NCBI GenBank assembly: GCA_947087265.1
Contig: CAMUBY010000007.1
Coordinates: 2,758 to 66,757, forward strand
Length of the DNA stretch: 64,000 bases
Source of the DNA: an uncultured Clostridia bacterium
GTDB taxonomy: Bacteria > Bacillota > Clostridia > Christensenellales > Borkfalkiaceae
Direction of reading: 5' to 3'
This document shows positions 2,278 through 63,237 of this stretch, piece after piece; the stretch's first letter is position 1; every line of letters begins with the position of its first letter. The position numbers were made by a program, and so were the translations under genes. A model generated the notes under the pieces. It did not search any database. It was not told the origin of the DNA and was given only the letters and a program-made list of their open reading frames with translations.

Positions 2278-2289
2278 ACGAATAATATA

Positions 2290-2334
2290 AAAACCCCCGA
2301 CGGTTTCCCTTGCAACCGTCGGGGGTTTATTTTA
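2290..2334. terminator. Bidirectional rho-independent terminator between convergent genes
   Basis: Stem cccccgacggtt (2294-2305) pairs with aaccgtcggggg (2314-2325). It is flanked by an A-run upstream and a T-run downstream. Confidence 0.75.
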
Positions 2335-2356
2335 CTTTATTTGCGGAACCGCCGTT

Positions 2357-5431: not shown

Positions 5432-5432
5432 G

Positions 5433-15130: not shown

Positions 15131-15246
15131 CTTTTATTATTTCGGCGAAAAATAAAAAAACTCCTTTTTTTCAGGAGATTTTTTCATAAAAATATTGAAT
15201 TTTTTGCACATTATCAAATCGTGCTCCGTGGCATTATGGAAACCTT

Positions 15247-38231: not shown

Positions 38232-38717
38232 TTACATAATACTCGCTTTGATTTGTTTTAGTGCCGTTTTTTCAAGACGCGAAACCTGCGCCTGCGAAAT
38301 CCCGACTTCTGCGGAAATTTCCGTCTGCGTCTTTCCTTCGTAATAACGGAGAGTGAGAATTTTCCGCTCCCGCTCGGTGAGTCTGTGAATCGCCTCTTTG
38401 AGTGCGACGCGCTCCGTCCAGATTTCGTCCGACTGCGATTCGTCGCACAGTTGGTCGAGAAGTTGCAGCGTATCGCCCGATTTGTTGTATACGGGTTCGT
38501 ACAGAGAAACGGGGTCGGAAATCGCGTCTAACGCATAGACGACTTCGCGCTCCTGCACCTGCATTTCGTTTGCGATTTTCTGAATAGTCGCCTCTTCGTC
38601 GCGTTCTTCGATTGCCTCGCGGACTTTTAAAATTTTATACGCGGTATCTCGGATGGAACGGGAAACGCGCAGGGAATTCCCGTCCCGCAAAAAGCGTTTG
38701 ATTTCACCGAGTATCAT
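38232..38717 (-). CDS. sigG: 3' segment (residues ~96-256) of a split sporulation sigma factor SigG gene
   Basis: It begins MILGEIKRFLRDGNSLRVSRSIRD, the region 2.4 onward of SigF/SigG-type sigmas, and ends with the region 4.2 motif GISQAQVSRLEK. Regions 1.2-2.3 are missing here and are found at 47957..48253. Confidence 0.9.
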   Translation of the reverse strand: MILGEIKRFLRDGNSLRVSRSIRDTAYKILKVREAIEERDEEATIQKIANEMQVQEREVVYALDAISDPVSLYEPVYNKSGDTLQLLDQLCDESQSDEIWTERVALKEAIHRLTERERKILTLRYYEGKTQTEISAEVGISQAQVSRLEKTALKQIKASIM

Positions 38718-38741
38718 GGGAATAACGCTTGTATGTTGAAA
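38702..38741. repeat. Recombination junction (host half-site + GG core + element half-site with a 15-bp terminal inverted repeat)
   Basis: The plus strand reads tttcaccgagtatcatg GG aataac GCTTGTATGTTGAAA. The last 15 nt (38727-38741) are the exact reverse complement of 47949-47963. Confidence 0.8.
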
Positions 38742-38804
38742 ATTTATCCCGTTCAGTATATTTACTCTACCACAAAATCATAAAAAAATCAAGCATATAA
38801 ATAC

Positions 38805-38836
38805 GAAATACCCGCCGTCAGTGTCGGCGGATATTT
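38805..38836 (-). terminator. Terminator after the TIR-STAND gene, just inside the element end
   Basis: Stem cccgccg (38811-38817) pairs with cggcgg (38825-38830). A T-rich tract follows on the minus strand. It lies between the stop at 38876 and the att junction. Confidence 0.6.
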
Positions 38837-38875
38837 CATGTTCGGGAATTGACAGGCGTTTATAAAACACTTCGC

Positions 38876-41197
38876 TTATATGCCTATCGACTCCCAGCGT
38901 GGTATGGTTTTATCAAGTTCCAAAATATTTAATATCTCATACGTCTTTTTGGCATATTTGTCGGCTTCGGCCCGGTTGCCGAGTTTTGCGTTTGCAGTAG
39001 AAAGCATCCTGTACGACTGCGCGGCGTCGCGCTGCGTTTCGCCCACCGAGCCCGCAAAAAGTTCAAGCGCGGAGTGTGCGTAGTTGATTGCTTCGGAATA
39101 TTTTTTCATGCGTATACAGGCAAAAGCCATTGCGTTTATGCAACATGCCTTGGCAAAAGCGAACGAGCACTTTTCGCAAAATTCTATGCTTTTATTCAAG
39201 TAATCAAAACTTTCGTCAAATCTGTCGAGATGTGCAAGGTCAAGCCCGACGTTATAATGCGCCCATGCAAGTTCGGAATAGTTGTCGGGGAAGTGATTCG
39301 TGTCGATATCGACTTTTTTCATAAAATATCCGAGTGCTTTGTCGTATTCGGCATCCATCCAATAATACCAGCCGAACAGCGGCGAAAGCCAGGACGTGCG
39401 TTCCAACCTTTCCGATTCGGTAAAACCGTCTCCGCGTAAAATCCGCTCGGCTTCCGTCATATGTTTATACAGCCCTTCCCTATCCTCTTTGCACCTGTAC
39501 GCAGTACAAATCTCGATATGCGCTCCGTAGCGCTGCTTCGGACTTATCGAACCGCTAGCAAGATACTCGCCGAACACCCCGATAACTCTGTCGTGCCGCG
39601 AAAAATGCTGAAATACTTTTGCGGTCTCGGGCAGCCATTCCGCATACAATGCGGAAGAACGCGGCATAAATTTCAGCAAGCGTTCGGTAACGTACAGCAA
39701 CCATACGTTGCGGTCAAACGTTCCGAAACGCGACGACGGAAAATACATGGCCGCAAGCGAACGAACGAAATCCCCCGATACGTCGTCCTGAAAAGGCATT
39801 TTGGTCAAACATAAGTCTTGCACGATGGGGTGCAGCGATATGTAATCGGTAGCGTTGTTATGCAAAATCCAATTTTTACTGATGAGCGAGTCTATTTCGT
39901 CGTAGCTTTTCAGTTTGCACATATCGTAAAAATCCATTGCCTCCACCCCCGAAACGGGTACGAAAGCAAGGTTGTACAAAACGCGTTTTTCTTCTTCGCT
40001 CAGTCCGGCAAGATTAAACATATCGGTGATGACGTGCTTTGCTTTTTCTTGCCCGTCGTCTATGCTGTCGAGCACTTGTACCGTGCTTAGTTTCAAATGT
40101 TCGAGCATGTCGGCGGGGCGTATGCGCTTATCTTTCATCATAGTGGAAATAAGGCGGATAGAAAGCGTATGCCCCGAAAGCAGCCTAATCATTTCCATTA
40201 CGGTTTTTTTGTTTTGCCCGTCCAATTCACGCGGATAGCCCTTTGTAAAGAGTTCAAACAGTTCGTCGTCGTTGTCGATACAGTCGATTGCGTAATTATT
40301 GACGCTCCGCGCGATTCTCGTTGTAAAAATAATACTCATCGGCAGGGCGACAATCTCTTCAAAATACGGGTCGTTTTGCACGTTGTAGTCGTCTACGATA
40401 AGCAAATCGTCCTCTACCGCATTCTCGCGCAAAAATTCGTACTTGCGCTTATAATAAACGTTAACGTCCTCGTTGACGCCCTTGGAAAACCCGCTGATTC
40501 GCACGTTTGCGTCCGACACAAGCAAATCTTTCAAATCCGAGCCGTAAGTCGCCCACGAGACCGACCTGAATTCGTTGCGGAAATTCACCGCAAATTTGCG
40601 CACCGTTTGACTTTTGCCGATACCGCCCATACCGCTTACGAATATTTTTTTGTTGGTTTTCAGAAAATCGAGCAGCTCTGCCTGCTCGCGTTTTCTGCCC
40701 ACAAAATACGAAACGGGAGTGATTGCACTCGAAACAATGCGACGTTCGGCATCACTTGCCGTAAAATTGTTTAATACAAAATTAGATTTCGCATAAATTA
40801 CGCGTTCGCACAAATCATCGATTTTCTCGCCGATAGGCGGTTCTTTGCCGTTAATGCGGTGAAAGCGCCCCAAAAAATATTGCACCGTGTCGTTTACGGG
40901 ATAGTCATCCGTCTGAAAAATAATGAGTTCCATGCTCTTTTCCCTATAACGGTTAAACGCCGCATGAATTTCGTTTTTTACGTGCTCGGACTGCATGGAC
41001 CCCTTATTGATTATCAACAAAAATATAGACGCTTTGTTTAACGCCACCATGATGGCTTCATCGAAATTTCCTTCGCAATCACGGGGCGCATACCAGCACG
41101 ACACCCCTTTGCTTTCCAACTTTGTGCCGATTTCCGCCACAATTTCTTTCGCGGTGTTGGTATGGTACGAAATAAATACGTCTCTTTTGTCGTTCAT
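38876..41197 (-). CDS. TIR - NB-ARC/STAND P-loop NTPase - TPR protein (candidate anti-phage/abortive-infection sensor)
   Basis: The N-terminal TIR has DVFISYHTNTAKE...SEHVKNEI (conserved Glu). Walker A is VSGMGGIGKSQT and Walker B is LLIVDDYN. The C-terminal ~200 aa contain TPR-like repeats (AWAHYNVGLDLAHLDRFDESFDYLNKSIEF, AAQSYRMLSTANAKLGNRAEADKYAKK). An AGGAG RBS precedes the start. Confidence 0.85.
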   Translation of the reverse strand: MNDKRDVFISYHTNTAKEIVAEIGTKLESKGVSCWYAPRDCEGNFDEAIMVALNKASIFLLIINKGSMQSEHVKNEIHAAFNRYREKSMELIIFQTDDYPVNDTVQYFLGRFHRINGKEPPIGEKIDDLCERVIYAKSNFVLNNFTASDAERRIVSSAITPVSYFVGRKREQAELLDFLKTNKKIFVSGMGGIGKSQTVRKFAVNFRNEFRSVSWATYGSDLKDLLVSDANVRISGFSKGVNEDVNVYYKRKYEFLRENAVEDDLLIVDDYNVQNDPYFEEIVALPMSIIFTTRIARSVNNYAIDCIDNDDELFELFTKGYPRELDGQNKKTVMEMIRLLSGHTLSIRLISTMMKDKRIRPADMLEHLKLSTVQVLDSIDDGQEKAKHVITDMFNLAGLSEEEKRVLYNLAFVPVSGVEAMDFYDMCKLKSYDEIDSLISKNWILHNNATDYISLHPIVQDLCLTKMPFQDDVSGDFVRSLAAMYFPSSRFGTFDRNVWLLYVTERLLKFMPRSSALYAEWLPETAKVFQHFSRHDRVIGVFGEYLASGSISPKQRYGAHIEICTAYRCKEDREGLYKHMTEAERILRGDGFTESERLERTSWLSPLFGWYYWMDAEYDKALGYFMKKVDIDTNHFPDNYSELAWAHYNVGLDLAHLDRFDESFDYLNKSIEFCEKCSFAFAKACCINAMAFACIRMKKYSEAINYAHSALELFAGSVGETQRDAAQSYRMLSTANAKLGNRAEADKYAKKTYEILNILELDKTIPRWESIGI

Positions 41198-41242
41198 CTT
41201 TTGCTCTCCTCTGTTGATAACAATGCTTTTATTTGCGTTCTT

Positions 41243-41998
41243 TTACCGTTGTGGAAAAACCTCATGCAGTTGAAATTCCAAAACTTTTTTATACGGCGAA
41301 TCCTTTTCGTTTGCAAGCCATGCAAAAGCTGACGGAACGTTCAGACAAAATCCTTTTCCGAAGTATTCATACACTGCCCGATGCGACCCGCCGAACGGAC
41401 GGGCGGTCACCTTTTTCACATTCTCCGACACGGATAAGTGATGATTGCGGGAAGAATTTCCGTTCAGAAGTGATTTGCCGTTATCGAAAATCGGAGCCGA
41501 ACGATAATTCCCTTCCCCGTCCATAATAATGCCTAAATTATGAAAGTGCCTGTCTTCGTTGAGAATGATATAATCGAGCGTAAACACCTTTTTGAAATAA
41601 TCGAACAAATCAAGCCCTGTAACTTCCTTTACAAAACGCAGAACAAACGCAACTCTGTTCTGAATATCCGAATATCCCTTGATTGCTTCATATAACGGAA
41701 CGCCGGCAACGTTTGTATATAACCGTTCCAAAGTAATAAACGACTCGTCGGCGCCTAAAAAATTCTTACTCCGACAGCCCTTTCTGCCGTTAATTTTTCC
41801 CTGCTCGTAAATAACGTACTCGTTCGGGCGCAAATCGGAAAAATTCAGCAACTGCGAAACAAGATATTCCACTTCCCCTTCGCGCTCGACGTTATCTTCC
41901 TTATACCAATAGCCCTCGTGAAAATACTTTAACTGCGTTCCGTCGCTCGTACCTTGCGTATCGACAAGAAATTCTTCCCCGATTTTGATATCAAACAT
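41243..41998 (-). CDS. HipA C-terminal-like Ser/Thr kinase domain protein (stand-alone, HipT-like)
   Basis: DYIILNEDRHFHNLGII matches the HipA catalytic N-x-D-x-H-x-x-N loop and is followed by APIFDNG. At 251 aa it lacks the HipA N-terminal domain. It overlaps the upstream HTH gene by 8 nt. Confidence 0.7.
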   Translation of the reverse strand: MFDIKIGEEFLVDTQGTSDGTQLKYFHEGYWYKEDNVEREGEVEYLVSQLLNFSDLRPNEYVIYEQGKINGRKGCRSKNFLGADESFITLERLYTNVAGVPLYEAIKGYSDIQNRVAFVLRFVKEVTGLDLFDYFKKVFTLDYIILNEDRHFHNLGIIMDGEGNYRSAPIFDNGKSLLNGNSSRNHHLSVSENVKKVTARPFGGSHRAVYEYFGKGFCLNVPSAFAWLANEKDSPYKKVLEFQLHEVFPQR

Positions 41999-42569
41999 AT
42001 CTGTTCCTCGTTGCTACGTCCGCCCAAAATAATTGTTCCCCGTCAAATTGAAACCAAAGAAAATCATTATAGGAAACCCCGTGCGTCTTTTTTACAATCG
42101 ATAACGGGTCGTAATGGGCAATTCCGAGTTTTTGCAGAATCTGTGCCAATCCGTCGCGGTTTTCTTCCCAGCACCGCCGTTTCAAAATTTCGGAAAGCGC
42201 CACAATGTCCATTTTTTCTTGATTAAAAATCTGCTTTACAGGGTGCTGAACAAACCTCTTGACGCGCACGACCGAACCGCTCACATAAAACTCGGATACA
42301 GGCTCGTCTTTCCAATAACAAATAGCGTGTAACCCGTCCCAGCGTTTCAGATAGTCGGGGCGGACGTCGCTTTCTTTGATTGCAAATTCCAAGGACAATG
42401 CCTCTGCAAGTTTTTCAAGCGTCGCCAAGTTCGGATTCACCTGTCCGCTTTCGATTCTTCCGATTGTAGATTGCGGAATACCGCAAAGCCTTCCAAGTTC
42501 GGCTTGGGACATTCTCCGCTTTTTCCGTTCCCGAATCATTTGATTTAGTAAAATGCTTTTCGTTGCCAT
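41991..42569 (-). CDS. XRE-family HTH protein with an extra ~125-aa C-terminal domain (candidate HipB/HipS-like partner)
   Basis: The HTH is MSQAELGRLCGIPQSTIGRIESGQVNPNLATLEKLAEAL. An uncharacterised C-terminal domain follows. It is translationally coupled to the kinase gene. Confidence 0.7.
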   Translation of the reverse strand: MATKSILLNQMIRERKKRRMSQAELGRLCGIPQSTIGRIESGQVNPNLATLEKLAEALSLEFAIKESDVRPDYLKRWDGLHAICYWKDEPVSEFYVSGSVVRVKRFVQHPVKQIFNQEKMDIVALSEILKRRCWEENRDGLAQILQKLGIAHYDPLSIVKKTHGVSYNDFLWFQFDGEQLFWADVATRNRYV

Positions 42570-42645
42570 ATTGCTTCACCATTATCATAATAGCACAAAT
42601 GCTATTATTTGTCAAATGGTTTGCAAAAAATAATATCTTAAAAAG

Positions 42646-44124
42646 TTAATTTTGGTTCAATACAATTTGCTCGTATTGCGTCTTATTCAGAACAACTTTC
42701 ATACGACCCGACGTAAGCACTACGCGCTCGACAAGTTCCCGAATAATATTTTGTTTTTCAACGTCCGTCATGTTCCGCCAAGTGTCGGGAAGCGTTCTGA
42801 GCATTCGTTCCTGCTCTTCGATTTTTCTCGCAATCGTCTGTTTTTCCTGTTCCTCCGCCATATCCCGCTCTATGCGTTTTCTGTCTTCGTTGAGAGTCCC
42901 CGCCTGGTCGAGCAATTTTTCATCGCCCAACTTTTTGTAAGCGTGAATTAGCCGATTGTATTCGATGTCTAATGCGTCGATTCTTTTTTGTAACCCTGCA
43001 ATAATATCTTCTCCGTTCATAACGCGGTATTTTAACTCATCGCGGTATTTCACGGCAAATTCCATAATCGTGCCGATAACCGCCTGCTCCACTTCTTCCG
43101 CATCGTAAACGATATTCGGACAATTAGAATCTTTCACCAAATAATGCTTGGTGGAGGGATACCTGGAATAACACAAAATTTTCAACGTTTGTTTCTTGCC
43201 TCTCCCCCATTTCATGTAACGCATTTTTGCGCCGCAGTTACCGCAATAAACGAGTGAGGATAAAAGATAATGCGAATCTCCGCGTTTAGCCTTTCGTTTT
43301 TGTAAAATTTCCTGTGCTTCCTTAAAAGTTTCTTCATCGATAAGCGGCGCGTGTTTGCCCTGATACTGTTCTCCGCGGAAAGTGATTTCACCGAGATACG
43401 TGCGGTTTTTTAGGATACCGAAAACAACCACGTCGCTGGAAAGCCCCAACCGTTCTGCAATTTGCCTCGGAGAATATTCGTTTGTATTATACAGTTCAAA
43501 AATCTTTCTGACTATCGGCGCTTTTTCGGCGTCGGGAATCAGATTATTTTCAGCCTTTGAATAAATATACCCGAACGGAGCAATACCTCCCCCTTTCCAA
43601 AACCCGTCTAACGCACGCTGCCTTCTGCCGAGCGTCAGTTTTGATACGATTGCGTCGTGGTCAAACTCCGCGAAAATGGACAAAATCGAAATCAAAATTC
43701 CGTAAGTTTGTTTGCTTCGGGAATCGATACTGTTCTTCAATGCCAGATACTCGCAACCCGCGCTGACGCACTTTTCTTTCAAAAAACGCAGAATCAGCAT
43801 TTGCGTTCTGCCGATACGGTCAAGGGTATAGGTAATAACCATCTTTATTTTACCCTTTTTCATGAGTTCCAACATTTTCTGATAAGCGGGTCTGTTTTCA
43901 TTCATTCCCGTATAGCCGTCGTCGATAAATACCACGGGATTACTCATTTCATAAGCCGTGCAGTATTTTTCGAGCGCAGCGTATTGAACGTCTAAACCGT
44001 AACCGTCTTTGGCTTGCGAATCCGTGGAAACTCTCAAATACAAAGCCGTAATGTTATCTAATTCATCGCCGATTTCGTCATAAATCGGATATGAAAATTT
44101 GATTTGTTTACTTGTTTCTTTCAT
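42646..44124 (-). CDS. Large serine recombinase (resolvase catalytic domain + recombinase domain + zinc ribbon + coiled coil)
   Basis: The catalytic ALYLRVSTDSQ motif is present. The recombinase domain shows GGIAPFGYIY. The zinc ribbon is CGNCGAKM...CPN. The C-terminal coiled coil includes RIDALDIEYNRLIHAYKKLGD. The architecture matches SpoIVCA/SprA/phage integrases. Confidence 0.9.
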   Translation of the reverse strand: MKETSKQIKFSYPIYDEIGDELDNITALYLRVSTDSQAKDGYGLDVQYAALEKYCTAYEMSNPVVFIDDGYTGMNENRPAYQKMLELMKKGKIKMVITYTLDRIGRTQMLILRFLKEKCVSAGCEYLALKNSIDSRSKQTYGILISILSIFAEFDHDAIVSKLTLGRRQRALDGFWKGGGIAPFGYIYSKAENNLIPDAEKAPIVRKIFELYNTNEYSPRQIAERLGLSSDVVVFGILKNRTYLGEITFRGEQYQGKHAPLIDEETFKEAQEILQKRKAKRGDSHYLLSSLVYCGNCGAKMRYMKWGRGKKQTLKILCYSRYPSTKHYLVKDSNCPNIVYDAEEVEQAVIGTIMEFAVKYRDELKYRVMNGEDIIAGLQKRIDALDIEYNRLIHAYKKLGDEKLLDQAGTLNEDRKRIERDMAEEQEKQTIARKIEEQERMLRTLPDTWRNMTDVEKQNIIRELVERVVLTSGRMKVVLNKTQYEQIVLNQN

Positions 44125-44266
44125 TTTTTCTCGGCTTCGTTTGCTTGTTTCTGTAATACACTCTGTTTACGATTTCGCTGACAAGCGGGCTCACGCAAAT
44201 ATACTTCTTCACGTCCTCCGAAGTAAGTTCTTCTTCCCCCATATATACCGTTATTTTTTCTACCAT
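44108..44266 (-). CDS. Unlisted 52-aa ORF overlapping the recombinase start (candidate accessory/directionality factor or leader)
   Basis: Read by hand: GAGGGGGGAG RBS, then ATG (44266), encoding MVEKITVYMGEEELTSEDVKKYICVSPLVSEIVNRVYYRNKQTKPRKNERNK. Its stop overlaps the recombinase ATG region by 17 nt. It is below the 60-aa ORF-track cutoff. Confidence 0.4.
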   Translation of the reverse strand: MVEKITVYMGEEELTSEDVKKYICVSPLVSEIVNRVYYRNKQTKPRKNERNK

Positions 44267-44324
44267 TTACTCCCCCCTCTTTCTTTCTTCTCTATTTTGA
44301 TTAAAAATAAACATTCGGGAAAGC

Positions 44325-44362
44325 AATAAAAAAGCGGCTACGGTGAACCGTAGCCGCTTTTG
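44325..44362 (-). terminator. Strong rho-independent terminator separating the AT-rich module from the recombinase module
   Basis: A 13-bp stem, aaagcggctacgg (44331-44343) pairing with ccgtagccgcttt (44348-44360), has loop tgaa. A T-run follows on the minus strand. Confidence 0.85.
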
Positions 44363-44381
44363 ATATTTTTTTAACCGACTT

Positions 44382-45086
44382 CTATTTGTCAAATTTTAAG
44401 ATGTCGTCCATAACATACAAAAATTTTCCGTTCCCTAATGAATACTCTTCATATCTAAAAACGAAAATATCATATTTTTCACTTTCGATTTTCGCCTGAC
44501 ACTGTATCAAGTTTATTCCGGTATCGGGGGCGAGAGCGATTTGCTGTTTATAATTAATAGAAAAATCAGGATATGTTTCCGACACAAAACTGCTGTCTGT
44601 TTCAAAATCTTTATAGTCGTATTTTTGATTAACGACTATCATTAACTCTAAACTATAATAGACTTCTATATTCGCCACGTTTACGTTTAGCGAATAATAT
44701 AAATCATCTCCGCTTACGGAATCGTAATATCTTTTAACCGTTGAAACGTTCTCTTCCGAAAGATTTAACATCAGATTTTTGAGCGCGCCCGACAATTCCG
44801 CAAAATCCGACTCGACCTGAACGAAATTGCTTTCGTCATAATAATTGTCATCCAAATTATTATTTGCAAACGGGACTAACTCAATCAGCAATACCGCAGC
44901 CACGGCGCAAGCCACCACTGCCGACGGAATCGCCCACACGAACTTGTTTCCGTTCCTCTTCGACCGGGAGCGGTTCTCTTCCTCAACAAAAAGTTCCAAA
45001 CGCTGTAAAAGTTCGTTGTCTTTGTCGGTCTGAATGGATTGTAAGTCCTTTTCTGATTCTTTTTTTAAGAATTTCTTTGTATTCAT
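44382..45086 (-). CDS. Single-pass membrane protein (possible anti-sigma/sensor partner of the ECF sigma)
   Basis: Charged N-terminal ~45 aa, one TM helix (FVWAIPSAVVACAVAAVLLIELVPF) and an extracytoplasmic C-terminal domain. It is the last gene of the XRE-sigma-peptidase string. No recognisable zinc anti-sigma motif is present. Confidence 0.55.
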   Translation of the reverse strand: MNTKKFLKKESEKDLQSIQTDKDNELLQRLELFVEEENRSRSKRNGNKFVWAIPSAVVACAVAAVLLIELVPFANNNLDDNYYDESNFVQVESDFAELSGALKNLMLNLSEENVSTVKRYYDSVSGDDLYYSLNVNVANIEVYYSLELMIVVNQKYDYKDFETDSSFVSETYPDFSINYKQQIALAPDTGINLIQCQAKIESEKYDIFVFRYEEYSLGNGKFLYVMDDILKFDK

Positions 45087-45090
45087 AATC

Positions 45091-45888
45091 CTAATAAATA
45101 TTTATTGCATATGCGTCGTCGATGTTTGTTTTGTAATCGATATCATAATATCCGTTGGATTTAAATGGATAACCCGATGCAACCGTTATGTATTGATAGA
45201 AAGCGCTTCCAGACGAACTTAATTCGTAACTGGTTTCTCTGTAACCGAACCCCACCATCACGTGATTGCCGGTAGATTCATAATAATAGATTGAATCAGT
45301 GTTTTCATCTGTATAAATATCAGCTACATTATATCCGCCGCAGAACAGAACGATAGGTTGGTTATATTCCATAAATGCTTTCGCCAAAGCATAATCGAAT
45401 TTTTTATTTTTCATAACGGAAGTAAAACTGATGCTCTTACCCATTCTGTTGCAGTAAGCAATCATTCCGTTCGTAAATTCTCTGACTGTTGTTCCGTCGT
45501 CGTCCGTCCCCATATCATTGTATAACTGCCTGACCACTTCGGTAACGGCATCGCTTGCGCTGTTATAAATAAACTGACCTTGGAACACAAATCCCGAAGT
45601 ATGGTTGGGAATTAAATTTTCATCGTATCTGTCGAAATAACCGATGATATTCGCGCCCGCCGTACAAGCGCAGTCGCCTAAGCCGACACTCTCGGTATAA
45701 TTCGGATGTTTGAGTACCATTCTGTACTCGTTTTCGTCTTTATTTTCATAATTGACCCTAACGGTTGATGCCGCATAAGGGGACATTCCGTCGTCGCTGT
45801 AAGTACTTTCTTGCACGGCAATTCCGCCCATGAAGAAATTTGCACCGCCCATAATTGCCATTAAGGCAACAGCCAAAAATTGTTTCAT
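45091..45888 (-). CDS. Secreted papain-fold cysteine peptidase-like protein
   Basis: A signal-peptide-like N-terminus (MKQFLAVALMAIMGGANFF) is present. The candidate nucleophile is in GDCACTAGANIIGYFDRY and the candidate His in TGNHVMVGFGY. The start is moved to the ATG at 45888, 6 nt after GAGGTG. Confidence 0.55.
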   Translation of the reverse strand: MKQFLAVALMAIMGGANFFMGGIAVQESTYSDDGMSPYAASTVRVNYENKDENEYRMVLKHPNYTESVGLGDCACTAGANIIGYFDRYDENLIPNHTSGFVFQGQFIYNSASDAVTEVVRQLYNDMGTDDDGTTVREFTNGMIAYCNRMGKSISFTSVMKNKKFDYALAKAFMEYNQPIVLFCGGYNVADIYTDENTDSIYYYESTGNHVMVGFGYRETSYELSSSGSAFYQYITVASGYPFKSNGYYDIDYKTNIDDAYAINIY

Positions 45889-45942
45889 ACAATTCACCTC
45901 ATTTGTTTGTTATATTTATAGACGGAAAAATGAGGCGAATTG

Positions 45943-46443
45943 TTACAAATATTTTTTCAAAGTTTTATACGCTCTGCTTACTTTTGTGCGAATGCTTATG
46001 TAACTTATGTTGAATTCGTTTGCCAATTCTTTCAGGCTGTAACCTTCCCAATAATGTAAATATAAAATCTCCTGCGTTAAGTCATCTAAATTCAATAGCG
46101 CTTTTTTCACATCGATATTTATGATTGTATTTTCTATATCGAATTTTGCAGCCACTATTTCATTCAATTCGATTTCTTCATGCTTTCCCCTCAAAATATC
46201 AATTGTATAATTATCTGCTAACTTATATAACCACGTCGTAGGATACTCAACATAATCCGGGGTTTTCATTTCTAATAATTTCAGGAATATATCATGCGCA
46301 ATATCTTCAGGATTGATTAGTTTTCCAAAACGCCTTTGAATATGTGCCTTCAATTTCAAATAGTAGTCTTCGTAAATAGATTTTACTGCATATTTGTTAT
46401 ATTTAATTTTCCCGATTAAGTAATTAAACTTTTGTGCATCCAT
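45943..46443 (-). CDS. ECF-type sigma-70 family sigma factor
   Basis: Region 2 shows PEDIAHDIFLKLLE and region 4 shows LHYWEGYSLKELANEFNISYISIRTKVSRAYKTLKK. It is 166 aa. Confidence 0.8.
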   Translation of the reverse strand: MDAQKFNYLIGKIKYNKYAVKSIYEDYYLKLKAHIQRRFGKLINPEDIAHDIFLKLLEMKTPDYVEYPTTWLYKLADNYTIDILRGKHEEIELNEIVAAKFDIENTIINIDVKKALLNLDDLTQEILYLHYWEGYSLKELANEFNISYISIRTKVSRAYKTLKKYL

Positions 46444-46459
46444 AATACTATTAAAAAAT

Positions 46460-46801
46460 TCAGGTATTTAAGTAACTATCCACATGAATCATAACTGCTT
46501 CCTTTTGTCTCTTATTCAGTATCCGAAACTTATCTAAAAGCTGTTTTGTTTCCCCTGTTAAAACAGTGACTTCTTCTTCGTTACACAACAACTCCGCAAC
46601 AGTTATATCAAATGCGTAGCATAATTTTTCAATCGCTTCAAGGCTGGGCGTGTAATTTCTCGCCGAATACCAGTTACGGATACACGCTTCGGTTAATTCC
46701 GCTTTTTGCGCCAAATCATAAATAGACATGCCTTTGGCTATCATGAGTTCTTTGATTTTTTGCTTCACTTTTATAATTAAAACACTATTATTTGTAGTCA
46801 T
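46460..46801 (-). CDS. XRE-family HTH transcriptional regulator
   Basis: The HTH is MSIYDLAQKAELTEACIRNWYSARNYTPSLEAIEKLCYAFDITVAELL. Confidence 0.8.
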   Translation of the reverse strand: MTTNNSVLIIKVKQKIKELMIAKGMSIYDLAQKAELTEACIRNWYSARNYTPSLEAIEKLCYAFDITVAELLCNEEEVTVLTGETKQLLDKFRILNKRQKEAVMIHVDSYLNT

Positions 46802-47040
46802 CGTATTTTAATTATATCGCATATATTAAGAAAAAATAAGGAGTTATCGTTTTGTATTTTAATAATTATGCCTATGATATCATATCATATTTCAAAGCTA
46901 CAATCAAGAGAAAACCAACTCGGTTATTTTAACGCGTTTATTTCCCGTATACTATCCATGAAGCAGATAAAAACAAAAAAGCCATACAACTAACGTAAGG
47001 CTTTCTTAACTTCACAACAAGTTTGATATTAAAATAACCT

Positions 47041-47208
47041 TCATAATTTATGCCCCATCCTGCCGTCGCCAACGCTACTTTCGCCTTTGCCTAAACAATT
47101 CTCTTCACTGCACCCTTCCGTGTGCGAATCACAGCCACAAGTTTCGTCGCAGTATTCATCGCAATCTTTTTCAGGCTCATTGTCGTCTGCACAGAAAATA
47201 ATATGCAT
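47041..47208 (-). CDS. Unlisted 55-aa acidic, cysteine-rich small ORF
   Basis: Read by hand: AAGGAGG RBS 7 nt before the ATG (47208), encoding MHIIFCADDNEPEKDCDEYCDETCGCDSHTEGCSEENCLGKGESSVGDGRMGHKL. It has 7 Cys and many Asp/Glu. It is below the ORF-track size cutoff. Confidence 0.45.
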   Translation of the reverse strand: MHIIFCADDNEPEKDCDEYCDETCGCDSHTEGCSEENCLGKGESSVGDGRMGHKL

Positions 47209-47388
47209 TTTAATACCTCCTTGGTTTTTTTGCTTTACAAATTAAATATTAAAAATAATCTCTTGCATATTCACTTTTTTCAGTATTAAAGACGAGACAA
47301 ACAACGAAAATGTTACAAAAAAAGCAAAATTTTTTATCGATACAAATTTTACTGCTGGAGCATCGGTTTAGCGCCGAATGCAAAATAA

Positions 47389-47928
47389 TTATCTGATTTC
47401 CACTTCAATTTCGGTAATAATCTTTTGCTTTGACTTTTTGTACGGAGTAAGTCCGCAAACGGAAAGCAACTTTTCCCAGCGGGAAATTCCGTTCCGCCGC
47501 ATGATTGTCTGAATACAACAAATAAGTTTTCTATTCCTTCTTGCATTAAAGTCGGTTTTAGAAAACGGCTTCAAACGGTTATATTCCGCAATAAATTCTT
47601 CTAACGAAGCCCCTTTCGCGCATTTATGTATGCTTGTTCCTTGTGCATATTCCGTCGGATAAAACTGCTTCATCCAAGCGGTATAAGTCGTTTGGAAACG
47701 GTAGTCGAATATTTCAATATACGGAAGCCCGTTTTTCCCGAATTCCTTTGAGCTTGGCAGCCGACCGTTCTTTACAAGAAACTCGTCGATTGCCTTGTTA
47801 ATTCGTTCTTCCGTCCATTTGCACCGCGGATGAACACGGATATCAGAATTTTGTTTTTTTGCCGATTTGGGTTCGTTTTCTGCATCTGATTGCCCGATTT
47901 TCGCCGATAATGCCTGTTTTCTAGCCAT
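47389..47928 (-). CDS. 179-aa basic protein with two helical repeats, the first gene inside the element (candidate DNA-binding/recombination directionality factor)
   Basis: An AAGGAG RBS lies 7 nt before the ATG at 47928, which is only 21 nt inside the element terminal repeat. Two related segments are WTEERINKAIDEFLVKNGRLPSSKEF and SLEEFIAEYNRLKPFSKTDF...ISRWEKLLSVCGL. There is no room for its own promoter. Confidence 0.6.
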   Translation of the reverse strand: MARKQALSAKIGQSDAENEPKSAKKQNSDIRVHPRCKWTEERINKAIDEFLVKNGRLPSSKEFGKNGLPYIEIFDYRFQTTYTAWMKQFYPTEYAQGTSIHKCAKGASLEEFIAEYNRLKPFSKTDFNARRNRKLICCIQTIMRRNGISRWEKLLSVCGLTPYKKSKQKIITEIEVEIR

Positions 47929-47948
47929 AAACCGCTCCTTTTGAAGGG

Positions 47949-47988
47949 TTTCAACATACAAGCATATTTGGCACGGCATAGGTTGAAA
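47949..47988. repeat. Recombination junction (element half-site with a 15-bp terminal inverted repeat + GG core + host half-site)
   Basis: The plus strand reads TTTCAACATACAAGC atattt GG cacggcataggttgaaa. The first 15 nt are the exact reverse complement of 38727-38741. Confidence 0.8.
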
Positions 47989-48253
47989 ACTTTACGTTGA
48001 AATCGAGGTTAAAGTTGTCGATTGCCTTGATAAGCCCCACGCAGCCCGCCTGAAATACGTCGTCCGCGTTAGAATTCTTCGCCCAGAACCGTTTGACGAG
48101 CGAGAGCACCAACCGCATATTTCCGACGATAAACGCTTCGCGCGCTTTTTCGTCGCCCTTTTTCAGCCGCCTCATCAGTTCGTCGTTTTCCTTTGCCGAG
48201 AGCTTGGGAAGCCCCGACGTATCCACTCCGCAAATGACTACTTTCTGTAACAT
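47951..48253 (-). CDS. sigG: 5' segment (residues 1-95) of the split sporulation sigma factor SigG gene, plus 5 element-encoded codons and a stop
   Basis: MLQKVVICGVDTSGLPKL (SigG-type N-terminus), NMRLVLSLVKRF (region 2.1) and DDVFQAGCVGLIKAIDNFN...KFSTYAVP (regions 2.2-2.3) are followed by NMLVC-stop. A GGAGG RBS precedes the start. Confidence 0.9.
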   Translation of the reverse strand: MLQKVVICGVDTSGLPKLSAKENDELMRRLKKGDEKAREAFIVGNMRLVLSLVKRFWAKNSNADDVFQAGCVGLIKAIDNFNLDFNVKFSTYAVPNMLVC

Positions 48254-48399
48254 ACACTCTTACCTCCTATGTACACGCCTTAGATTAAGAGTTTTTGCAA
48301 AGGACGGAAATTTATGCGGAACCACAGAGTACCATTCGGAGGCATAAAAAATTTGTATTATTTTGCCGAAACGCCTCTCTTTTGCGCGAAAAAACCAGC

Positions 48400-48447
48400 A
48401 AATAAAAACAACCGCCGCCGAAAGTTTCGGCGGCGGTTGTTTCTTTT
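48400..48447 (-). terminator. Strong terminator between the lipoprotein/vWA operon and sigG
   Basis: Stem caaccgccgccg (48408-48419) pairs with cggcggcggttg (48427-48438). T-runs are present on both strands. Confidence 0.85.
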
Positions 48448-48453: not shown

Positions 48454-50772
48454 TTAAGATTTTTTCAGTTCGTAAAGTTTGGAATATCTGTCGGTTAACA
48501 TCAGTTTTTTGTCTACGGTTGCGGAGAAAGTTACGCCGAGTTCGTCGCCCGAAATTTTCTCGTCAAGAACAATCTTTCCCGAGGCAACGCTGTATGCGTA
48601 AACGGTTTCTGCGGGTTCCCCGTCCTTTACGGTATACACGATTGCAACCCTACCGCTCGTTGCGCCTTCGGATTCAGGCGTAAACGTCACCGAATACTGA
48701 TTCTGCGCGTTATCCTTCACGGAATAAGTGCCGCTCAATAATCCCGCGAAATCAATCTCTTTTACGGTAAAGGTAATCGTCGTTGAAACGGTAGGCTTTA
48801 CCGTAGAAGTCATTTTTACGCTGTATGTGCCTGCCGCCGATGCCGTGAACTTCCAATATTTCAATGTGGGGTCCGCCGCAATTTCGTCCGCCGCGGCGTC
48901 CGCGTCGGGCGGTGTGAGCGTGACGTTTGCCGTAACGCCCGAACTCAACTCGGCCGTATAAGCGCCGTTTGCGTACTGGTTGGGTTCACAGCTGAAATAC
49001 ACGGTTTCGCCGACGCCAATCGTCTTTTGCGCCGCAGTCGTTTCAAACTTGGTGAGCGGATTATACACGCGGGGCGTAAGCGAGGTAGGGTCTGAACCCG
49101 TGACGTCGAAATAAATTGTCTTCGTGGTCTTCGCCGTTGTAAAGACAAGTTTCATCGACCCGCCGCGCCGCGCTTCCACCAAACGGGTATTGCCGCCCAT
49201 ACCGAATACGTATAAATCATCGCCGTAGAACCAATTATGGCTGTTTTCTTTCTTTTTCGTGCCGTCGGTAACGAACAGCGGGTCGGTAGTAAAATCCGAA
49301 CCCTCGGGCAAAATATTTTTGAACGTAAGCGTTATCTGATTGGTATGCCCGCTGCTGCCTTCGTTGCCGCGATTGAATTTGATGGTGTCGCCGTCGTTTA
49401 TCTCTTTTCCGTTATAGAAAATCTGATAACTTTGCACCTCGCCCGTCTTTTCATCTTCGGTGATGAAGGGATTTTTTTCGGTACGCTTGCCCGCAACCTG
49501 CTGACAGGTAATTCTCCATTGGAAATCAGGCGATTCCTGGGTGGGAGACGTAACGCCCTCTGAATCGGTAACGAAATGGGAATACTTATTTTCCTCGAAA
49601 TCGCTTGAGAACCATGCTTTCTGCAATACGGTAGCCGATTCTATGAAGTAGGAATTACCGAGCTTAAATTCTACGTCCACCGTGAAGTAATAGTGTCTGT
49701 TCGCGCCGCCCGGATACAGATAACCGAACGAGAAGAAGAACTGCTGTTGAGAAAGTTCCGCGCCCTCCCGATAATCCTTGTTGGGATTGGTTTTGCCGAT
49801 ATCGTACATATCCGTTACAAGTTTCTCGATACCGTAAGCCGCTTTGTCGGAATCGAAATACCAGGGTCTGTAAAAAACGCCCTCCATCATTTCCGTACTC
49901 TTACGCGGGGATTCGTATTGCGAACCGTCGTAAAAATAAACAACGTCGATTTTATCATCCTTCATACTCGTGTGAAATTCACTGATGTAGCCGACATCGT
50001 CCTCTTTCACATAGGTGTAATTATCTCCGAAGCGGTAAGTATAATTGATGTTCGTCCACCCTTTATTGATGTAAGACGACGCCGTAGAGGTTCCGCTCAC
50101 CACATTGCTCTTGAAGAAATTGCCGAGAGAAAGCGCGTTTTGTACGGAGCTGAGATTCACCCCCGCAACCGTAACGGTGTAGGAAGCGCTGACCGCACCC
50201 TTTGAAACGGAAACGGTATAATTGCCCTCCGCCGTAAATACGTCGTCATACGCCGAACCGTATTCGGAAACCACTTCGAATCTGAGTGAGCGGAGCGAGG
50301 TAATTTCTTCATCAAATTCCTGCTTCTGCGCATTCTCGTACGTTCCCGTAACTTTGAGCCCTTCGTAAGAAATGCTTTCTCCGATTTGATAGTTGAGTTT
50401 CGCGTTTTCGGTATTTAACTTGAGCGCTTTCAACACGTTGTTGAAGTCGTTTACCATAATATAGTAAACTTCTTTCTTGCCCTGATAACTGACCGTTACC
50501 GCATAACTCCCGAGCGCGTTCATATCGAGCGAACTTTCGGGCTTCACGGTCGCCTCCGCCGTTACGTCCACCTTTTCGCCCTTACCGTTTTGCAGATAGA
50601 CTTTGAAACTTTCACCCGTCGTGAACTCGTCGCCGATATAAAACGCCGTTTTCTGTCCTTCGATGATAAGGCGCTCGCCCGATTCGTCACCGCACGCCAC
50701 AGGCAACACGCAGCCCAAACAAATAATGAAAGTAAGAGCAAAAGTCAATAATAATTTTTTAAGATTTTTCAT
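48454..50772 (-). CDS. Large lipoprotein with repeated beta-rich (Ig-like) modules
   Basis: The signal peptide with lipobox is MKNLKKLLLTFALTFIICLGCVLPVACG. Repeated Thr/Val/Tyr-rich beta segments (YTVSVS..SYTVTVAG, GTYSVKMTST) are present. It is the last gene of the MoxR/vWA operon. Confidence 0.6.
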   Translation of the reverse strand: MKNLKKLLLTFALTFIICLGCVLPVACGDESGERLIIEGQKTAFYIGDEFTTGESFKVYLQNGKGEKVDVTAEATVKPESSLDMNALGSYAVTVSYQGKKEVYYIMVNDFNNVLKALKLNTENAKLNYQIGESISYEGLKVTGTYENAQKQEFDEEITSLRSLRFEVVSEYGSAYDDVFTAEGNYTVSVSKGAVSASYTVTVAGVNLSSVQNALSLGNFFKSNVVSGTSTASSYINKGWTNINYTYRFGDNYTYVKEDDVGYISEFHTSMKDDKIDVVYFYDGSQYESPRKSTEMMEGVFYRPWYFDSDKAAYGIEKLVTDMYDIGKTNPNKDYREGAELSQQQFFFSFGYLYPGGANRHYYFTVDVEFKLGNSYFIESATVLQKAWFSSDFEENKYSHFVTDSEGVTSPTQESPDFQWRITCQQVAGKRTEKNPFITEDEKTGEVQSYQIFYNGKEINDGDTIKFNRGNEGSSGHTNQITLTFKNILPEGSDFTTDPLFVTDGTKKKENSHNWFYGDDLYVFGMGGNTRLVEARRGGSMKLVFTTAKTTKTIYFDVTGSDPTSLTPRVYNPLTKFETTAAQKTIGVGETVYFSCEPNQYANGAYTAELSSGVTANVTLTPPDADAAADEIAADPTLKYWKFTASAAGTYSVKMTSTVKPTVSTTITFTVKEIDFAGLLSGTYSVKDNAQNQYSVTFTPESEGATSGRVAIVYTVKDGEPAETVYAYSVASGKIVLDEKISGDELGVTFSATVDKKLMLTDRYSKLYELKKS

Positions 50773-50796
50773 AATACCTCCGTCAACAAACAGACG

Positions 50797-52380
50797 TTAA
50801 TCGTAATAACCGCAAGCAAACAGCCAGAACGAATCCTGCGTTGCAAAATAACCTTGCCCTTCGGGCGTCGTATAGTCGAAAATTCCCGTATCGAACATAT
50901 TATCCGACCAGAACCAACGCGCTTCGGCATACAGTTGCAGGAAGATTTTGAGTTCTTTGGTAACGTATACCCTGCCGTCGTTGTTCGCTTTTTCGTAATA
51001 ATCGGTTCTGACAAATTCGGTGAAATCCCAATAGAGCGATTCTTCCGTGTATTTTTCAAAGATACGGTTGAGCGTCGAATTTTCATAATCTTCGTCGTAT
51101 TTTTTCTCGTCGTAGGGAACGCCGACATACGACGCGTTGAGTTTCAGCCAATTCTGCGGCGATGCGGGCGGAGGAGGAACAATGTTGTTTGCATTGTACA
51201 GCGAAGTATAATTAAAACAAGGCGTTGTTTTGGTAATATCGCAATATAATCTGGGTCCGAACCCGTCGCCGTAAGCGGCATATTTGTTGTTGGGGTCGTT
51301 CACCTTATAAAGGTCGCGGTCGTAAACGTGATAGCACTGCGTCTTGAAGTTGTATTTGAAGCGGCTTGCATCGAACGTTTTTCCTCCCGAAACCGCGTCG
51401 GCATAATGGTAAGGAAGCGTAGAATTGACCGACTTCGTACGCGGCGCGTATGCCGCTCTGATTGTCTGATAGGTCAACGTATCCTTGACTTCGCCCTCGT
51501 ATTTAATCGTAAAATCAATGGAAACGGGGTAAGTGCCGAACTTATGTTCCCCCTGCACCGTAAAGTAATAGGTGTTACCAACGTATTTGGGTTCCACGAA
51601 TACATTGTAGACAAAATTTTTGGTGTAAGTTCCTTCTTCCCCGCCGCTTGTAATCACTTCGGACGGGGTAGGACTAACCCATCCCCCTTTGTTACCGATA
51701 TAGGTCGATAAAACAGGACGCACTTCGTCAGTAAAGATATCTACCCAGGAACTGATGGAATACCAGCCCGATTCGGTGGGACTGAAGCAGTAATGCACTT
51801 CCTGCCCCGACGAGCGCATTTGCGCGCGGTATGTGCCGAGTACGCTGATTTGGTAACACTCCCCGTTGCGCCAGCCCGTGCCGCTGCCCGTGGAAGGCTT
51901 TAACGGATATTTCAGATTGATGAAAATTTTGCGTTCGCTCGGCGTCGCCACATAACCGTTCGGGTTATAGGAATACTGAACGGGTAAATTCAGAAGGTGC
52001 ACGTAATATTCAGCCTCTTCGATTTCGCCCGCGTCGGCAAATCCTTTTTCGTTGAGCGAAGCAAGAAAACGTTTCTTGTTGTTCCGCTTGTTCACCCACT
52101 CCACCTGAATGGAGCTGTCTTCAAATATGTGGAGCGCACTGTCTACCAACACGTTTACCGTATAGTGTTTTTCCGTGTCGGGGTCATTGCCGCCGATATC
52201 GGGGTTATCAGGGTCAACGGGCTGTACGGGCGTACTCGGGTCGCCGCCCGGTTTTGAACCGCCGCCGTTCGGCTTGCCGTTACTGTCCGTATAAGAACCG
52301 AACTCACAGCCCACGCAAGTAAAAACAAGTAAAAGGCAGAGAAATACGGCAAGAAATTTGGTTTTGAAAAAATTTTTCAA
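50797..52380 (-). CDS. Lipoprotein of unknown function with a Gly/Pro-rich linker
   Basis: A TTG start lies 8 nt after GGAGGG. The signal/lipobox is FLAVFLCLLLVFTCVGC, followed by the linker NGKPNGGGSKPGGDPSTPVQPVDPDNPDIGG. Confidence 0.6.
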   Translation of the reverse strand: MKNFFKTKFLAVFLCLLLVFTCVGCEFGSYTDSNGKPNGGGSKPGGDPSTPVQPVDPDNPDIGGNDPDTEKHYTVNVLVDSALHIFEDSSIQVEWVNKRNNKKRFLASLNEKGFADAGEIEEAEYYVHLLNLPVQYSYNPNGYVATPSERKIFINLKYPLKPSTGSGTGWRNGECYQISVLGTYRAQMRSSGQEVHYCFSPTESGWYSISSWVDIFTDEVRPVLSTYIGNKGGWVSPTPSEVITSGGEEGTYTKNFVYNVFVEPKYVGNTYYFTVQGEHKFGTYPVSIDFTIKYEGEVKDTLTYQTIRAAYAPRTKSVNSTLPYHYADAVSGGKTFDASRFKYNFKTQCYHVYDRDLYKVNDPNNKYAAYGDGFGPRLYCDITKTTPCFNYTSLYNANNIVPPPPASPQNWLKLNASYVGVPYDEKKYDEDYENSTLNRIFEKYTEESLYWDFTEFVRTDYYEKANNDGRVYVTKELKIFLQLYAEARWFWSDNMFDTGIFDYTTPEGQGYFATQDSFWLFACGYYD

Positions 52381-52393
52381 CTCTATTCCCTCC

Positions 52394-57949: not shown

Positions 57950-57951
57950 GA

Positions 57952-59088: not shown

Positions 59089-59122
59089 TATGATTTCTCC
59101 TACGGAAATTTTTTACTGATGA

Positions 59123-63033: not shown

Positions 63034-63237
63034 ATGGAAAAATTCATGGAACGATTAAAAACATTACGCATAGAAAAGGGGCTTTCGCAAAAACAACTTG
63101 CAAAAGAAACAGGATTTGGTTCAAGCGCAGTTTGTTATTGGGAAACTGGCAAAAGAATCCCGAGTGCGTTGGTAATTATAACGCTTGCAGATTATTTCGG
63201 AGTTACGACCGATTATTTATTAGGAAGAAGCAATTAA
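63034..63237 (+). CDS. XRE-family HTH transcriptional regulator (cI-like, possibly leaderless)
   Basis: The HTH is LSQKQLAKETGFGSSAVCYWETGKRIPSALVIITLADYFGVTTDYLLG. The ORF track starts at TTG 63028. The ATG at 63034 lies ~7 nt after the -10, and an alternative ATG is at 63046. Confidence 0.75.
   Translation: MEKFMERLKTLRIEKGLSQKQLAKETGFGSSAVCYWETGKRIPSALVIITLADYFGVTTDYLLGRSN

Follow-up and report, generated by a model that had tools for sequence, protein, structure and literature searches.

The DNA analysed here is a 64,000-nt stretch of a contig from an uncultured Clostridia bacterium (CAMUBY010000007.1 of assembly GCA_947087265.1, positions 2,758 to 66,757; hereafter the window), in which the sporulation gene sigG, for a sigma factor, is interrupted in frame by a 9,251-bp element encoding a large serine recombinase of its own. 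SigG, the late sigma factor of the forespore, is both required and transcribed there (PMC3789822). Both pieces of the gene lie on the minus strand. The 5' fragment (codons 1-95; 47970..48253) is called as an open reading frame (ORF) that extends to 47951 through an element-encoded tail, NMLVC and a stop; the 3' fragment (codons 96-256 and the stop codon; 38232..38718) begins at 38718 with the third base of the Pro95 codon, and the ORF called within it (38232..38717) starts MILGEIKRFLRD. These two ORFs, 47951..48253 and 38232..38717, had been proposed as halves of a single gene in an initial annotation of the window, and we recovered them with the same coordinates and sequences. When base 47970 is joined to base 38718 on the minus strand, the result is a single reading frame, 771 nt long and with 256 uninterrupted codons; the dinucleotide CC is common to both halves and there is no break in frame, which bears out the 256-aa join made in that annotation.

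The joined protein was matched by the NCBIfam SigG equivalog NF006071 at 374.7 bits (cutoff 372), with profile positions 3-257 (of 258) aligned to residues 2-255 of the protein. The SigF equivalog reached 276.8 bits, about 100 bits below the SigG model, and the older TIGR02850 model gave 360, under its cutoff of 457. Many intact 256-aa proteins named SigG are 94% identical to the joined protein at 100% coverage, so that its collinearity with SigG holds from end to end, and in the DNA of intact sigG genes the junction is uninterrupted (...TACGCCGTTCC/CATGAT..., where the slash, here and below, marks the position of the break). Comparison of the sequences thus supports the split gene being of the SigG type and not of the SigF type, as the initial annotation had preferred. 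The 3' junction was seen again at 100% identity in two other metagenome assemblies, which argues that the split structure is not an assembly chimera.

The boundary between host and element is a 2-bp core, CC, at 47970-47971 and 38719-38720, corresponding to the first two bases of the Pro95 codon; nothing else is common to both junctions. With one copy of the core, the element occupies 38719-47969 of the window. attL (47945..47971, minus strand) reads GCCGTG-CC-AAATATGCTTGTATGTTGAAA and consists of the core at 47970-47971 and the element arm AAATATGCTTGTATGTTGAAAC, within which the inverted repeat GCTTGTATGTTGAAA lies at 47949-47963. attR (38719..38745, minus strand) reads TTTCAACATACAAGCGTTATT-CC-CATGATAC and consists of the element arm TTTTCAACATACAAGCGTTATT, with the inverted repeat TTTCAACATACAAGC at 38727-38741, and the core at 38719-38720. 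The termini of the element are perfect 15-nt inverted repeats, symmetric about the CC core, and the same is true of the reconstructed attP. The predicted circular attP junction is ...CAAGCGTTATTCC/AAATATGCTTG... and the predicted rejoined attB junction is ...TATGCCGTGCC/CATGATACTC.... Judged by sequence, this is the layout expected when a 2-bp crossover divides the attP of a large serine recombinase. The insertion point falls in the conserved region 2 motif of SigG, FSTYAVP/MI.GEI, and the insert differs in GC content (32-46%) from its flanks (about 48-55%).

The recombinase (492 aa; 42646..44124, minus strand) contains Resolvase, Recombinase and Zn_ribbon_recom domains (PF00239, PF07508 and PF13408) and has a PHROG integrase match; these three diagnostic domains bear out the large serine recombinase that had been placed at this position. 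Its catalytic motif, YLRVSTDSQ, and four zinc-ribbon cysteines are invariant across 17 relatives, and its top sequence matches in the PDB are TP901-1 integrase and TnpX. Relatives are 52-72% identical to it, and those that adjoin a broken sigG are 60-72% identical. Nothing above 27% identity was found in IMG/VR, GenBank phages reached at most 34%, and no close relative was found among PLSDB plasmids. The identity of the element as a phage or prophage remnant was considered and rejected, as it has no phage structural genes and its recombinase has no close viral relatives.

When a one-genome-per-species collection was scanned with a profile made from an alignment of recombinase relatives, about 38 loci were obtained (related loci and assemblies are designated by L numbers below). 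Downstream of the recombinase gene, at a distance of between tens of bases and a few kb, 19 of these loci have a co-oriented SigG fragment that starts at residues 88-94; one further locus, L020, shows the 5' half of sigG. All junctions in these 20 species-level genomes are at Pro95/Met96, and the same break was found in further assemblies: L101 (GCA_965320795.1), L102 (GCA_037194205.1), L103 (GCA_964316835.1) and L104-L110. The break follows TAYGCCGTNCC in L020, L102, L103, L104 and L107; 19 related loci keep the element-side attR arm, GTTTCg.c.TACAAG.GT.ATTCC, and on the host side the Pro codon varies in its third base from host to host. The sigG fragments of all relatives, the most divergent included, score as SigG and not SigF, and no frameshift was found in those of more than 20 loci, all of which are open and SigG-like. 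That some members of the family might sit in sigF was considered and rejected, since every fragment scores as SigG. In L102 the gene order is spoIIGA-sigE-sigG(5'), a 9.1-kb insert with sugar-metabolism cargo, a small ORF and the recombinase, then sigG(3') and a PRC-barrel gene. This context identifies the split gene there as the sigG of the canonical sporulation operon; the same canonical arrangement, with spoIIGA and sigE intact, occurs throughout L102-L105.

Comparison of the recombinase genes with the sigG genes beside them speaks to how the family spreads. The recombinase genes of six species (L016-L022) are 99.9-100% identical at the nucleotide level, whereas their sigG 3' halves are 75-82% identical; in L008-L011 the corresponding values are 89-97% and 73-85%. 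Near-identical recombinases beside diverged sigG genes point to recent entry into different species, always at the same codon. Relatives with an uninterrupted sigG were found, as expected of an empty site, and for L107 the empty site is congeneric: L107 (occupied) and L111-L113 (intact sigG; the organism is abundant) are syntenic over ten upstream genes, with a DNA identity of about 88%, and the homology stops exactly at the CC (...TACGCCGTCCC). Upstream of the recombinase in L021 are genes for a type IV coupling protein, a VirB4-like ATPase, pilins and TnpV, which marks this member as an integrative conjugative element; the L016-22 conjugative element occurs in MGBC mouse-gut samples. As judged from these comparisons, the family is a non-phage one that is spreading horizontally among gut Clostridia and includes conjugative members, and we are nearly certain that it constitutes a mobile element family specific for sigG, which it splits. 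Within the literature searched, such a family appears to be previously undescribed. A variant is indicated by P0276, a 101-aa product of a short ENA contig: this SigG N-terminal fragment is more than 90% identical to that of the window and ends ...FSTYAVP followed by another tail, IRLTRS, and its sequence indicates that in a close relative the same codon is occupied by yet a different variant of the element. Of the other members of the P0276 cluster, several end in translations of Illumina adapters (...IGRAHV) and are assembly artefacts.

A sister clade of recombinases (57-59% identity) abuts not sigG but another sequence, CTATAAGTCGATTA, and thus sigG targeting is the property of one clade. 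In the sister-clade loci (L015, L023, L025-L030, L032-L034 and L040), the recombinase gene is closely followed on its 3' side by CTATAAGTCGATTA(A), which may have either orientation. In L015 this sequence lies just past the 3' end of a convergent 324-aa gene, whose product we take, from its motifs, to be an aspartate-semialdehyde dehydrogenase; in L040 it adjoins another gene.

At the other end of the element, directly behind the 5' half of sigG, is a gene that we call orfX (179 aa, starting MARKQ; 47389..47928, minus strand), whose AAGGAG ribosome-binding site lies about 35 nt from the crossover. The orfX family is small, with 32 of 5.8 billion clusters. All 9 contexts that were resolved (the window, L020, L102, L103, L104-106, L107-110 and the clusters P0243-P0245) have an orfX homologue directly 3' of the sigG 5' half and in the same orientation, with 20-35 nt between the crossover and the ribosome-binding site; in P0243-P0245 gene callers had fused the orfX homologue to a Sigma70_r2 domain. 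In L020 the recombinase module is inverted, and the placement of orfX relative to the sigG 5' half is unchanged. Neither a terminator nor a promoter was found between the sigG 5' fragment and orfX in the window. The attachment arm occupies the gap between the crossover and the ribosome-binding site, which leaves no room within the element for a promoter of orfX's own, and orfX in the integrated state must therefore be transcribed from the host side. In L102 (2175-3365) and L107 (10001-11188), and also in L108-L110, the sigG 5' frame stays open through the arm into orfX, which predicts a SigG(1-95)-OrfX fusion of 395-396 aa, annotated as one Sigma70_r2 gene; a stop codon separates the sigG 5' frame from orfX in the window, L020, L103 and L104. 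An AlphaFold model of OrfX (pLDDT, the predicted local distance difference test score, 75.5) is all-helical and gave no Foldseek match with E <1. One orfX relative has a faint precomputed match to PF18780 (HNH_repeat), and an alignment of the family found no matches in JGI metagenome contigs. On position, orfX is a candidate for a recombination directionality factor or another regulator of excision.

Upstream of the split gene, at 48290..48317 (minus strand), is a candidate sigG promoter of the forespore type (sigmaF/sigmaG-like), GCATA-N14-GCAAAAACT. The motif G(C/A)ATA-N14-GCAnAnACT is kept upstream of both intact (L001, L005) and split (L102, L107) sigG genes, and has a single exact match in the window; by its likeness to forespore promoters it is a putative sigmaF/sigmaG motif. 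A looser form of the pattern is over-represented in the window, with 5 matches against 1.2 expected. One site outside the element, GCATAGAAAAGGGGCTTTCGCAAAAACA (63068-63095, plus strand), has one mismatch to the sigG promoter motif, and one within the element, downstream of orfX (GCATATTATTTTCTGTGCAGACGACAAT; 47179-47206, minus strand), is a loose sigmaF-like match that is uninterpretable. No promoter matching the conserved sigG motif was found ahead of the recombinase. In the organisms studied, sigG has a forespore sigmaF/G promoter and, where the genes are clustered, also receives read-through from the spoIIG promoter (PMC3789822). The window and its closest intact relatives have no spoIIGA-sigE beside sigG, which stands alone downstream of a Tex-like gene. 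Between the candidate sigG promoter and the surface-protein gene upstream is a strong bidirectional terminator-like hairpin (48406..48442; 10 of the 17 bp in its stem are GC pairs), which is predicted to shield sigG in this genome from upstream transcription.

Just inside the 3' end of the element we also noted a low-confidence promoter-like site that faces outward (38764..38792, minus strand; TTGATT-N17-TGgTAGAGT) and lies below the threshold of the consensus scan. Outward extended -10 boxes of the TGnTAnAAT type stand at this place in the window (TTTTGTGGTAGAGT), in L101 (TTTTGTGGTATAAT and TGTGGTATAAT; 11500-11520) and in L102 (TGATATAAT, at about 11520). Boxes of the TGCTATAAT type occur at the recombinase-proximal end in L016-22, where they are just upstream of attR, and in L007, L031 and L038. 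In the integrated state the box faces the sigG 3' half, which has no obvious ribosome-binding site.

Every gene of the element in the window is on the sigG strand, and along the direction of sigG transcription the order is orfX, an XRE-family regulator, an ECF (extracytoplasmic function)-like sigma factor, two genes without assigned function, a terminator, a 52-aa ORF, the recombinase, a second XRE-family gene, a HipA_C-like gene, a TIR-NB-ARC-TPR gene and a terminator. The first XRE-family helix-turn-helix (HTH) regulator (113 aa; 46460..46801) matches HTH_26 and HTH_3 and phage-repressor-like PHROGs, and the sigma-70 family protein (166 aa; 45943..46443; Sigma70_r2 and r4_2 domains) may be either cargo or a regulator. 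The next two genes, of 268 aa and 234 aa (44382..45897), include a weak Peptidase_C39_2 hint in the 268-aa product, and are followed by a strong predicted terminator hairpin at 44330-44361. The 52-aa ORF (44108..44266) overlaps the start of the recombinase gene by 17 nt and is a second candidate for an accessory or directionality factor; tblastn places a match to it directly ahead of the recombinase gene in more than 35 related loci, those of the clade with a different target among them, and it has no family match in Pfam or PHROG. Beyond the recombinase, the cargo operon (38876..42569) encodes an XRE-HTH protein (41991-42569), a HipA_C-like kinase (41243-41998) and a TIR-NB-ARC-TPR protein (38876-41197), is preceded by a sigma-70-like promoter (42615-42587, minus strand; 11/12 matches) and ends at a predicted terminator-like hairpin (38803..38839). 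The PADLOC models PDC-M03A and TIR match this operon, which by these similarities is probably an anti-phage defence system. Domain and PHROG scans found no conjugation or mobilisation genes (relaxase, coupling protein, type IV secretion) in the element of the window, which is accordingly a small integrative element, and no phage structural, packaging or lysis genes, its PHROG matches being regulators and the integrase only.

Cargo varies across the family: the window has defence genes, and other members have type I restriction-modification, helicases, Ku/LigD or sugar genes. L006, a contig from a different sample, is 100% identical to the window from 44588 to 42113 and then diverges (L006 2477-2712); the identical stretch runs from the tail of the 234-aa gene through the small ORF and the recombinase into the XRE gene, of which it takes in the first 152 codons, and its sequence suggests an element variant with other cargo in the same environment. 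L104 and L105 carry, at 11075-19716, a complete type I restriction-modification system that includes a specificity-subunit shufflon with a tyrosine recombinase. In L103 the BREX genes for PglZ and BrxL (866-5547) are not part of the element but immediately precede spoIIGA; defence systems seem to accumulate around sigG. In L107-L109 the cargo that adjoins orfX (about 11400-15200) encodes a Y-family polymerase (IMS), an SRAP protein, Ku and an ATP-dependent DNA ligase. The Ku/LigD pair of B. subtilis is, we take it, part of the sigmaG-dependent spore DNA-repair set, and by analogy the repair cargo of L107-L109 may be functionally tied to its insertion site.

The host side of the window has features of its own. 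In the closest intact relatives the Tex-like gene is directly upstream of sigG; in the window it is found at 60411-62579, and about 12 kb with six large ORFs (48454-60118, minus strand) come before sigG. These ORFs, one of which encodes a 772-aa Big_3 surface protein, have no NCBIfam match, and the region looks like a second, older island beside sigG. No other sporulation genes that would mark the host as a spore-former were found in the window, which otherwise holds housekeeping genes only.

Neither piece of sigG would make a sigma factor alone, so that sigmaG would be available only after precise excision by the recombinase. Because orfX is tied to the sigG promoter, we propose it as the factor that controls directionality or excision. 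While integrated, orfX would be transcribed solely from the sigG promoter, with spoIIG read-through added where the genes cluster; OrfX, possibly with the 52-aa protein, would then switch the recombinase to excision, and the element would leave exactly when and where the host attempts to express sigG, that is, in the forespore. Once OrfX was gone, the excised circle would re-integrate by the default attP x attB reaction; as there is no cell division from excision to germination, the circle would not be diluted out, which makes re-integration feasible. A precedent for the control step exists in SPbeta and in C. difficile skin, where the directionality factor is the component controlled by a sporulation sigma factor (PMC4191935, PMC5025042). 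Taken as one package, a family of sigG-splitting elements with orfX-coupled excision in the forespore is our preferred reading, to which we assign a probability of roughly 55%. Judged by itself, the coupling of excision to sporulation through orfX is a tentative proposal, somewhat short of an even chance. We regard the full cycle as unlikely, in the form of a reversible, self-timed germ-line switch in which the element senses sigG transcription, is excised in the forespore, is borne in the spore as a non-replicating circle and re-integrates into sigG.

The alternative that has to be taken most seriously is plain parasitic insertion. The highly conserved region 2 of sigG would then be no more than a safe and widely available place to integrate, silent in growing cells; carriers would not sporulate, apart perhaps from rare cells that had been cured spontaneously, the element would be under no developmental control, and the position of orfX at its end would serve the circular form, for example through expression across attP, as in Tn916-like elements. 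We consider this a real possibility, although one on which we would not bet. It agrees with the recent epidemic spread that the identical recombinase genes of six species reveal, with the frequent loss of sporulation in gut Firmicutes and with the fact that neither an empty site nor a circle was detected for any carrier; in the case of the window, no same-species empty site was found, the nearest intact proteins (94% identical) are in a different neighbourhood, and the flanking 772-aa gene product has no record in protein collections. Several further observations favour it or weigh against coupled excision. The outward promoter-like box at the recombinase end would, in the circle, read over attP into orfX, which suits a role after excision at least as well. 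Some clostridial large serine recombinases (TnpX, TndX) work without a directionality factor, and OrfX has no informative Pfam, PHROG or PDB match and no phage homologue, nor anything else in these comparisons that links it to recombinases. L101 (CBDNWR010000032.1, 1-12039) has the small ORF, the recombinase, the sigG 3' half and a normal attR, and neither a sigG 5' half nor a matching inverted-repeat arm was found in the 10 kb upstream, which hold housekeeping lspA, der and plsY with genes for GH16 and Big_2 proteins; it may be a rearranged or degraded insertion, and at least some insertions may thus be dead ends. Excision in the forespore would risk loss of the element from the germ line, for which re-integration is a speculative remedy. 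The exact rejoined SigG of the window and that of L102 were absent from a collection of 15 billion proteins, and attP patterns from both inverted-repeat arms had no match in JGI metagenome contigs or IMG/VR, both being uninformative as negatives. Against plain parasitism, orfX keeps its place and orientation relative to the sigG promoter even though the recombinase module of L020 is inverted, which argues for coupling to the host promoter and not to the recombinase end. The sigG fragments are undecayed in more than 20 loci and the adjoining spoIIGA and sigE are still intact, and a family that sterilises its hosts should be purged fast, yet this one is in representative genomes of at least 20 species. 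The weight of these last points is reduced by two considerations: the ratio of nonsynonymous to synonymous substitution rates (dN/dS) of the two open sigG halves against an intact orthologue, about 0.03, mostly reflects history before the insertion, and near-identical copies in several species mean recent spread, so that the insertions may be young and not yet purged.

The remaining alternatives fit the locus less well. A second intact sigG, or a redundant factor of the SigF/G type, could make the split copy a tolerated pseudogene; only 64 kb of this genome is visible and sigma factor paralogues are common in Clostridia. The check for a second copy could be made within the window only, where none was found and the sole other sigma-like gene encodes a 351-aa RpoD-like protein. 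In L102-L105, moreover, it is the split copy that occupies the canonical spoIIGA-sigE-sigG position; the split copy shows no decay, and surveys list sigG among the four sporulation sigma genes of every spore-former with duplication unmentioned, all of which makes redundancy improbable. A domesticated skin-like element excised in the mother cell only, as in sigK and spsM, would have the same overall architecture, with a recombinase gene adjoining the 3' gene fragment as in skin; this is very improbable, as sigmaG is needed and transcribed in the forespore (PMC3789822), where repair of the mother-cell copy would be of no help, and as the element is horizontally mobile and not vertically fixed. 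Least credible of all is an artefact of assembly or binning, a chimeric contig of unrelated pieces. The contig is indeed metagenome-assembled and from a rare organism, and its recombinase was seen on two contigs only, but both junctions are within one contig, the 3' junction is 100% identical in two other samples, the junction codon recurs in more than 20 independent genomes and the junction anatomy is exactly as expected for the att sites of a serine recombinase.

Either of the two leading accounts would have consequences. If the elements are parasitic, they would sterilise spore formation in gut Clostridia and thereby affect transmission from host to host; if instead excision is coupled to sigG expression, this would be a new kind of reversible germ-line rearrangement and the first programmed DNA rearrangement in the germ line of bacterial sporulation, carried on a horizontally transmissible element. 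In both cases the family ferries defence, DNA-repair and metabolic cargo into a sporulation locus and offers a natural collection of serine integrases that are highly site-specific and whose attB and attP sites are defined, while orfX and the 52-aa protein are candidates for a new family of accessory factors. For annotation, a sigG split in this way should not automatically be called a pseudogene, as happened with sigK.

The closest known parallel is skin of B. subtilis and C. difficile (recombinase SpoIVCA; directionality factors Skr and CD1234), in which a sporulation sigma factor gene is likewise split in frame by an element with its own large serine recombinase, short-core junctions with inverted repeats, a recombinase usually by the 3' fragment and cargo that varies by host. 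The initial annotation had likened the locus to skin and SPbeta; this likeness stood as far as the short core, the inverted repeats and the recombinase near the 3' fragment are concerned, with the qualification that the present element is not phage-like and belongs to a horizontally spreading family. Set against the class of intervening elements as a whole, the in-frame split of a sporulation gene, the element's own recombinase and the att core with repeats were all found, and the mother-cell target was not. The target is sigG, of the forespore, and not sigK, of the mother cell, and as sigG acts in the forespore the mother-cell logic of skin and SPbeta cannot simply be transferred. Skin is moreover a vertically inherited prophage remnant that is excised in a terminal mother cell, whereas the sigG family is horizontally mobile, non-phage and partly conjugative; and where skin and SPbeta have a directionality factor with an internal sigmaE/K promoter (PMC5025042, PMC4191935), the sigG elements have a conserved gene behind sigG's own promoter.

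SPbeta in spsM (SprA/SprB), vfbin in spoVFB, vrin in spoVR, gin in gerE (GirC/GirX) and yin in yabG are likewise serine-recombinase elements in sporulation genes, which are rebuilt by precise excision, and gin establishes that a non-phage element can split and restore such a gene (PMC5595907). In contrast to sigG, the targets of these five are all expressed in the mother cell, and sigK was the sole primary compartment sigma factor to be hit; the characterised elements that split sporulation genes are thus all in mother-cell genes (sigK, spsM, spoVFB, spoVR, gerE and yabG). A survey of 180 Firmicutes genomes lists 15 split sigK genes and no split sigG, and the literature searched, with its incomplete coverage, has no sigG/spoIIIG integration target, in line with the initial annotation, which had treated sigG as a target not known from earlier descriptions. 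The accepted rationale for such targets is that the mother-cell genome is discarded, so that excision costs the element nothing; a widespread and spreading family that splits the forespore gene sigG does not fit this rationale.

Among mobile elements of Clostridia, Tn4451/Tn4453 (TnpX) and Tn5397 (TndX) are similar in being mobilisable or conjugative and moved by a large serine recombinase, and TnpV-like and type IV secretion genes are present in L021. TnpX and TndX insert at loosely defined GA-containing targets; the sigG recombinase differs in its strict site-specificity, with a CC core at one sigG codon, and in being shorter (492 aa). The behaviour that a forespore element would need in order to persist in the germ line is that of reversible active lysogeny, as in Listeria phi10403S in comK and SpyCIM1 in mutL, which pass through excision, an episome and re-integration (PMC13492144); those systems are phage-derived, use tyrosine or other integrases and live in non-sporulating hosts, and for the sigG elements re-integration is hypothetical. 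A cis-regulatory arrangement of a related kind is described for the helper-embedded satellites (HE-PICI), which are inserted co-oriented in prophage late genes with target-gene transcription tied to excision (PMC10111431). One integrase clade there also repeatedly targets one gene class, although the target is a phage late gene, the integrase belongs to another family and there is no link to sporulation. In function the sigG element may stand nearer to reversible active lysogeny, as of phi10403S in comK, or to the cis-regulatory arrangement of HE-PICI.

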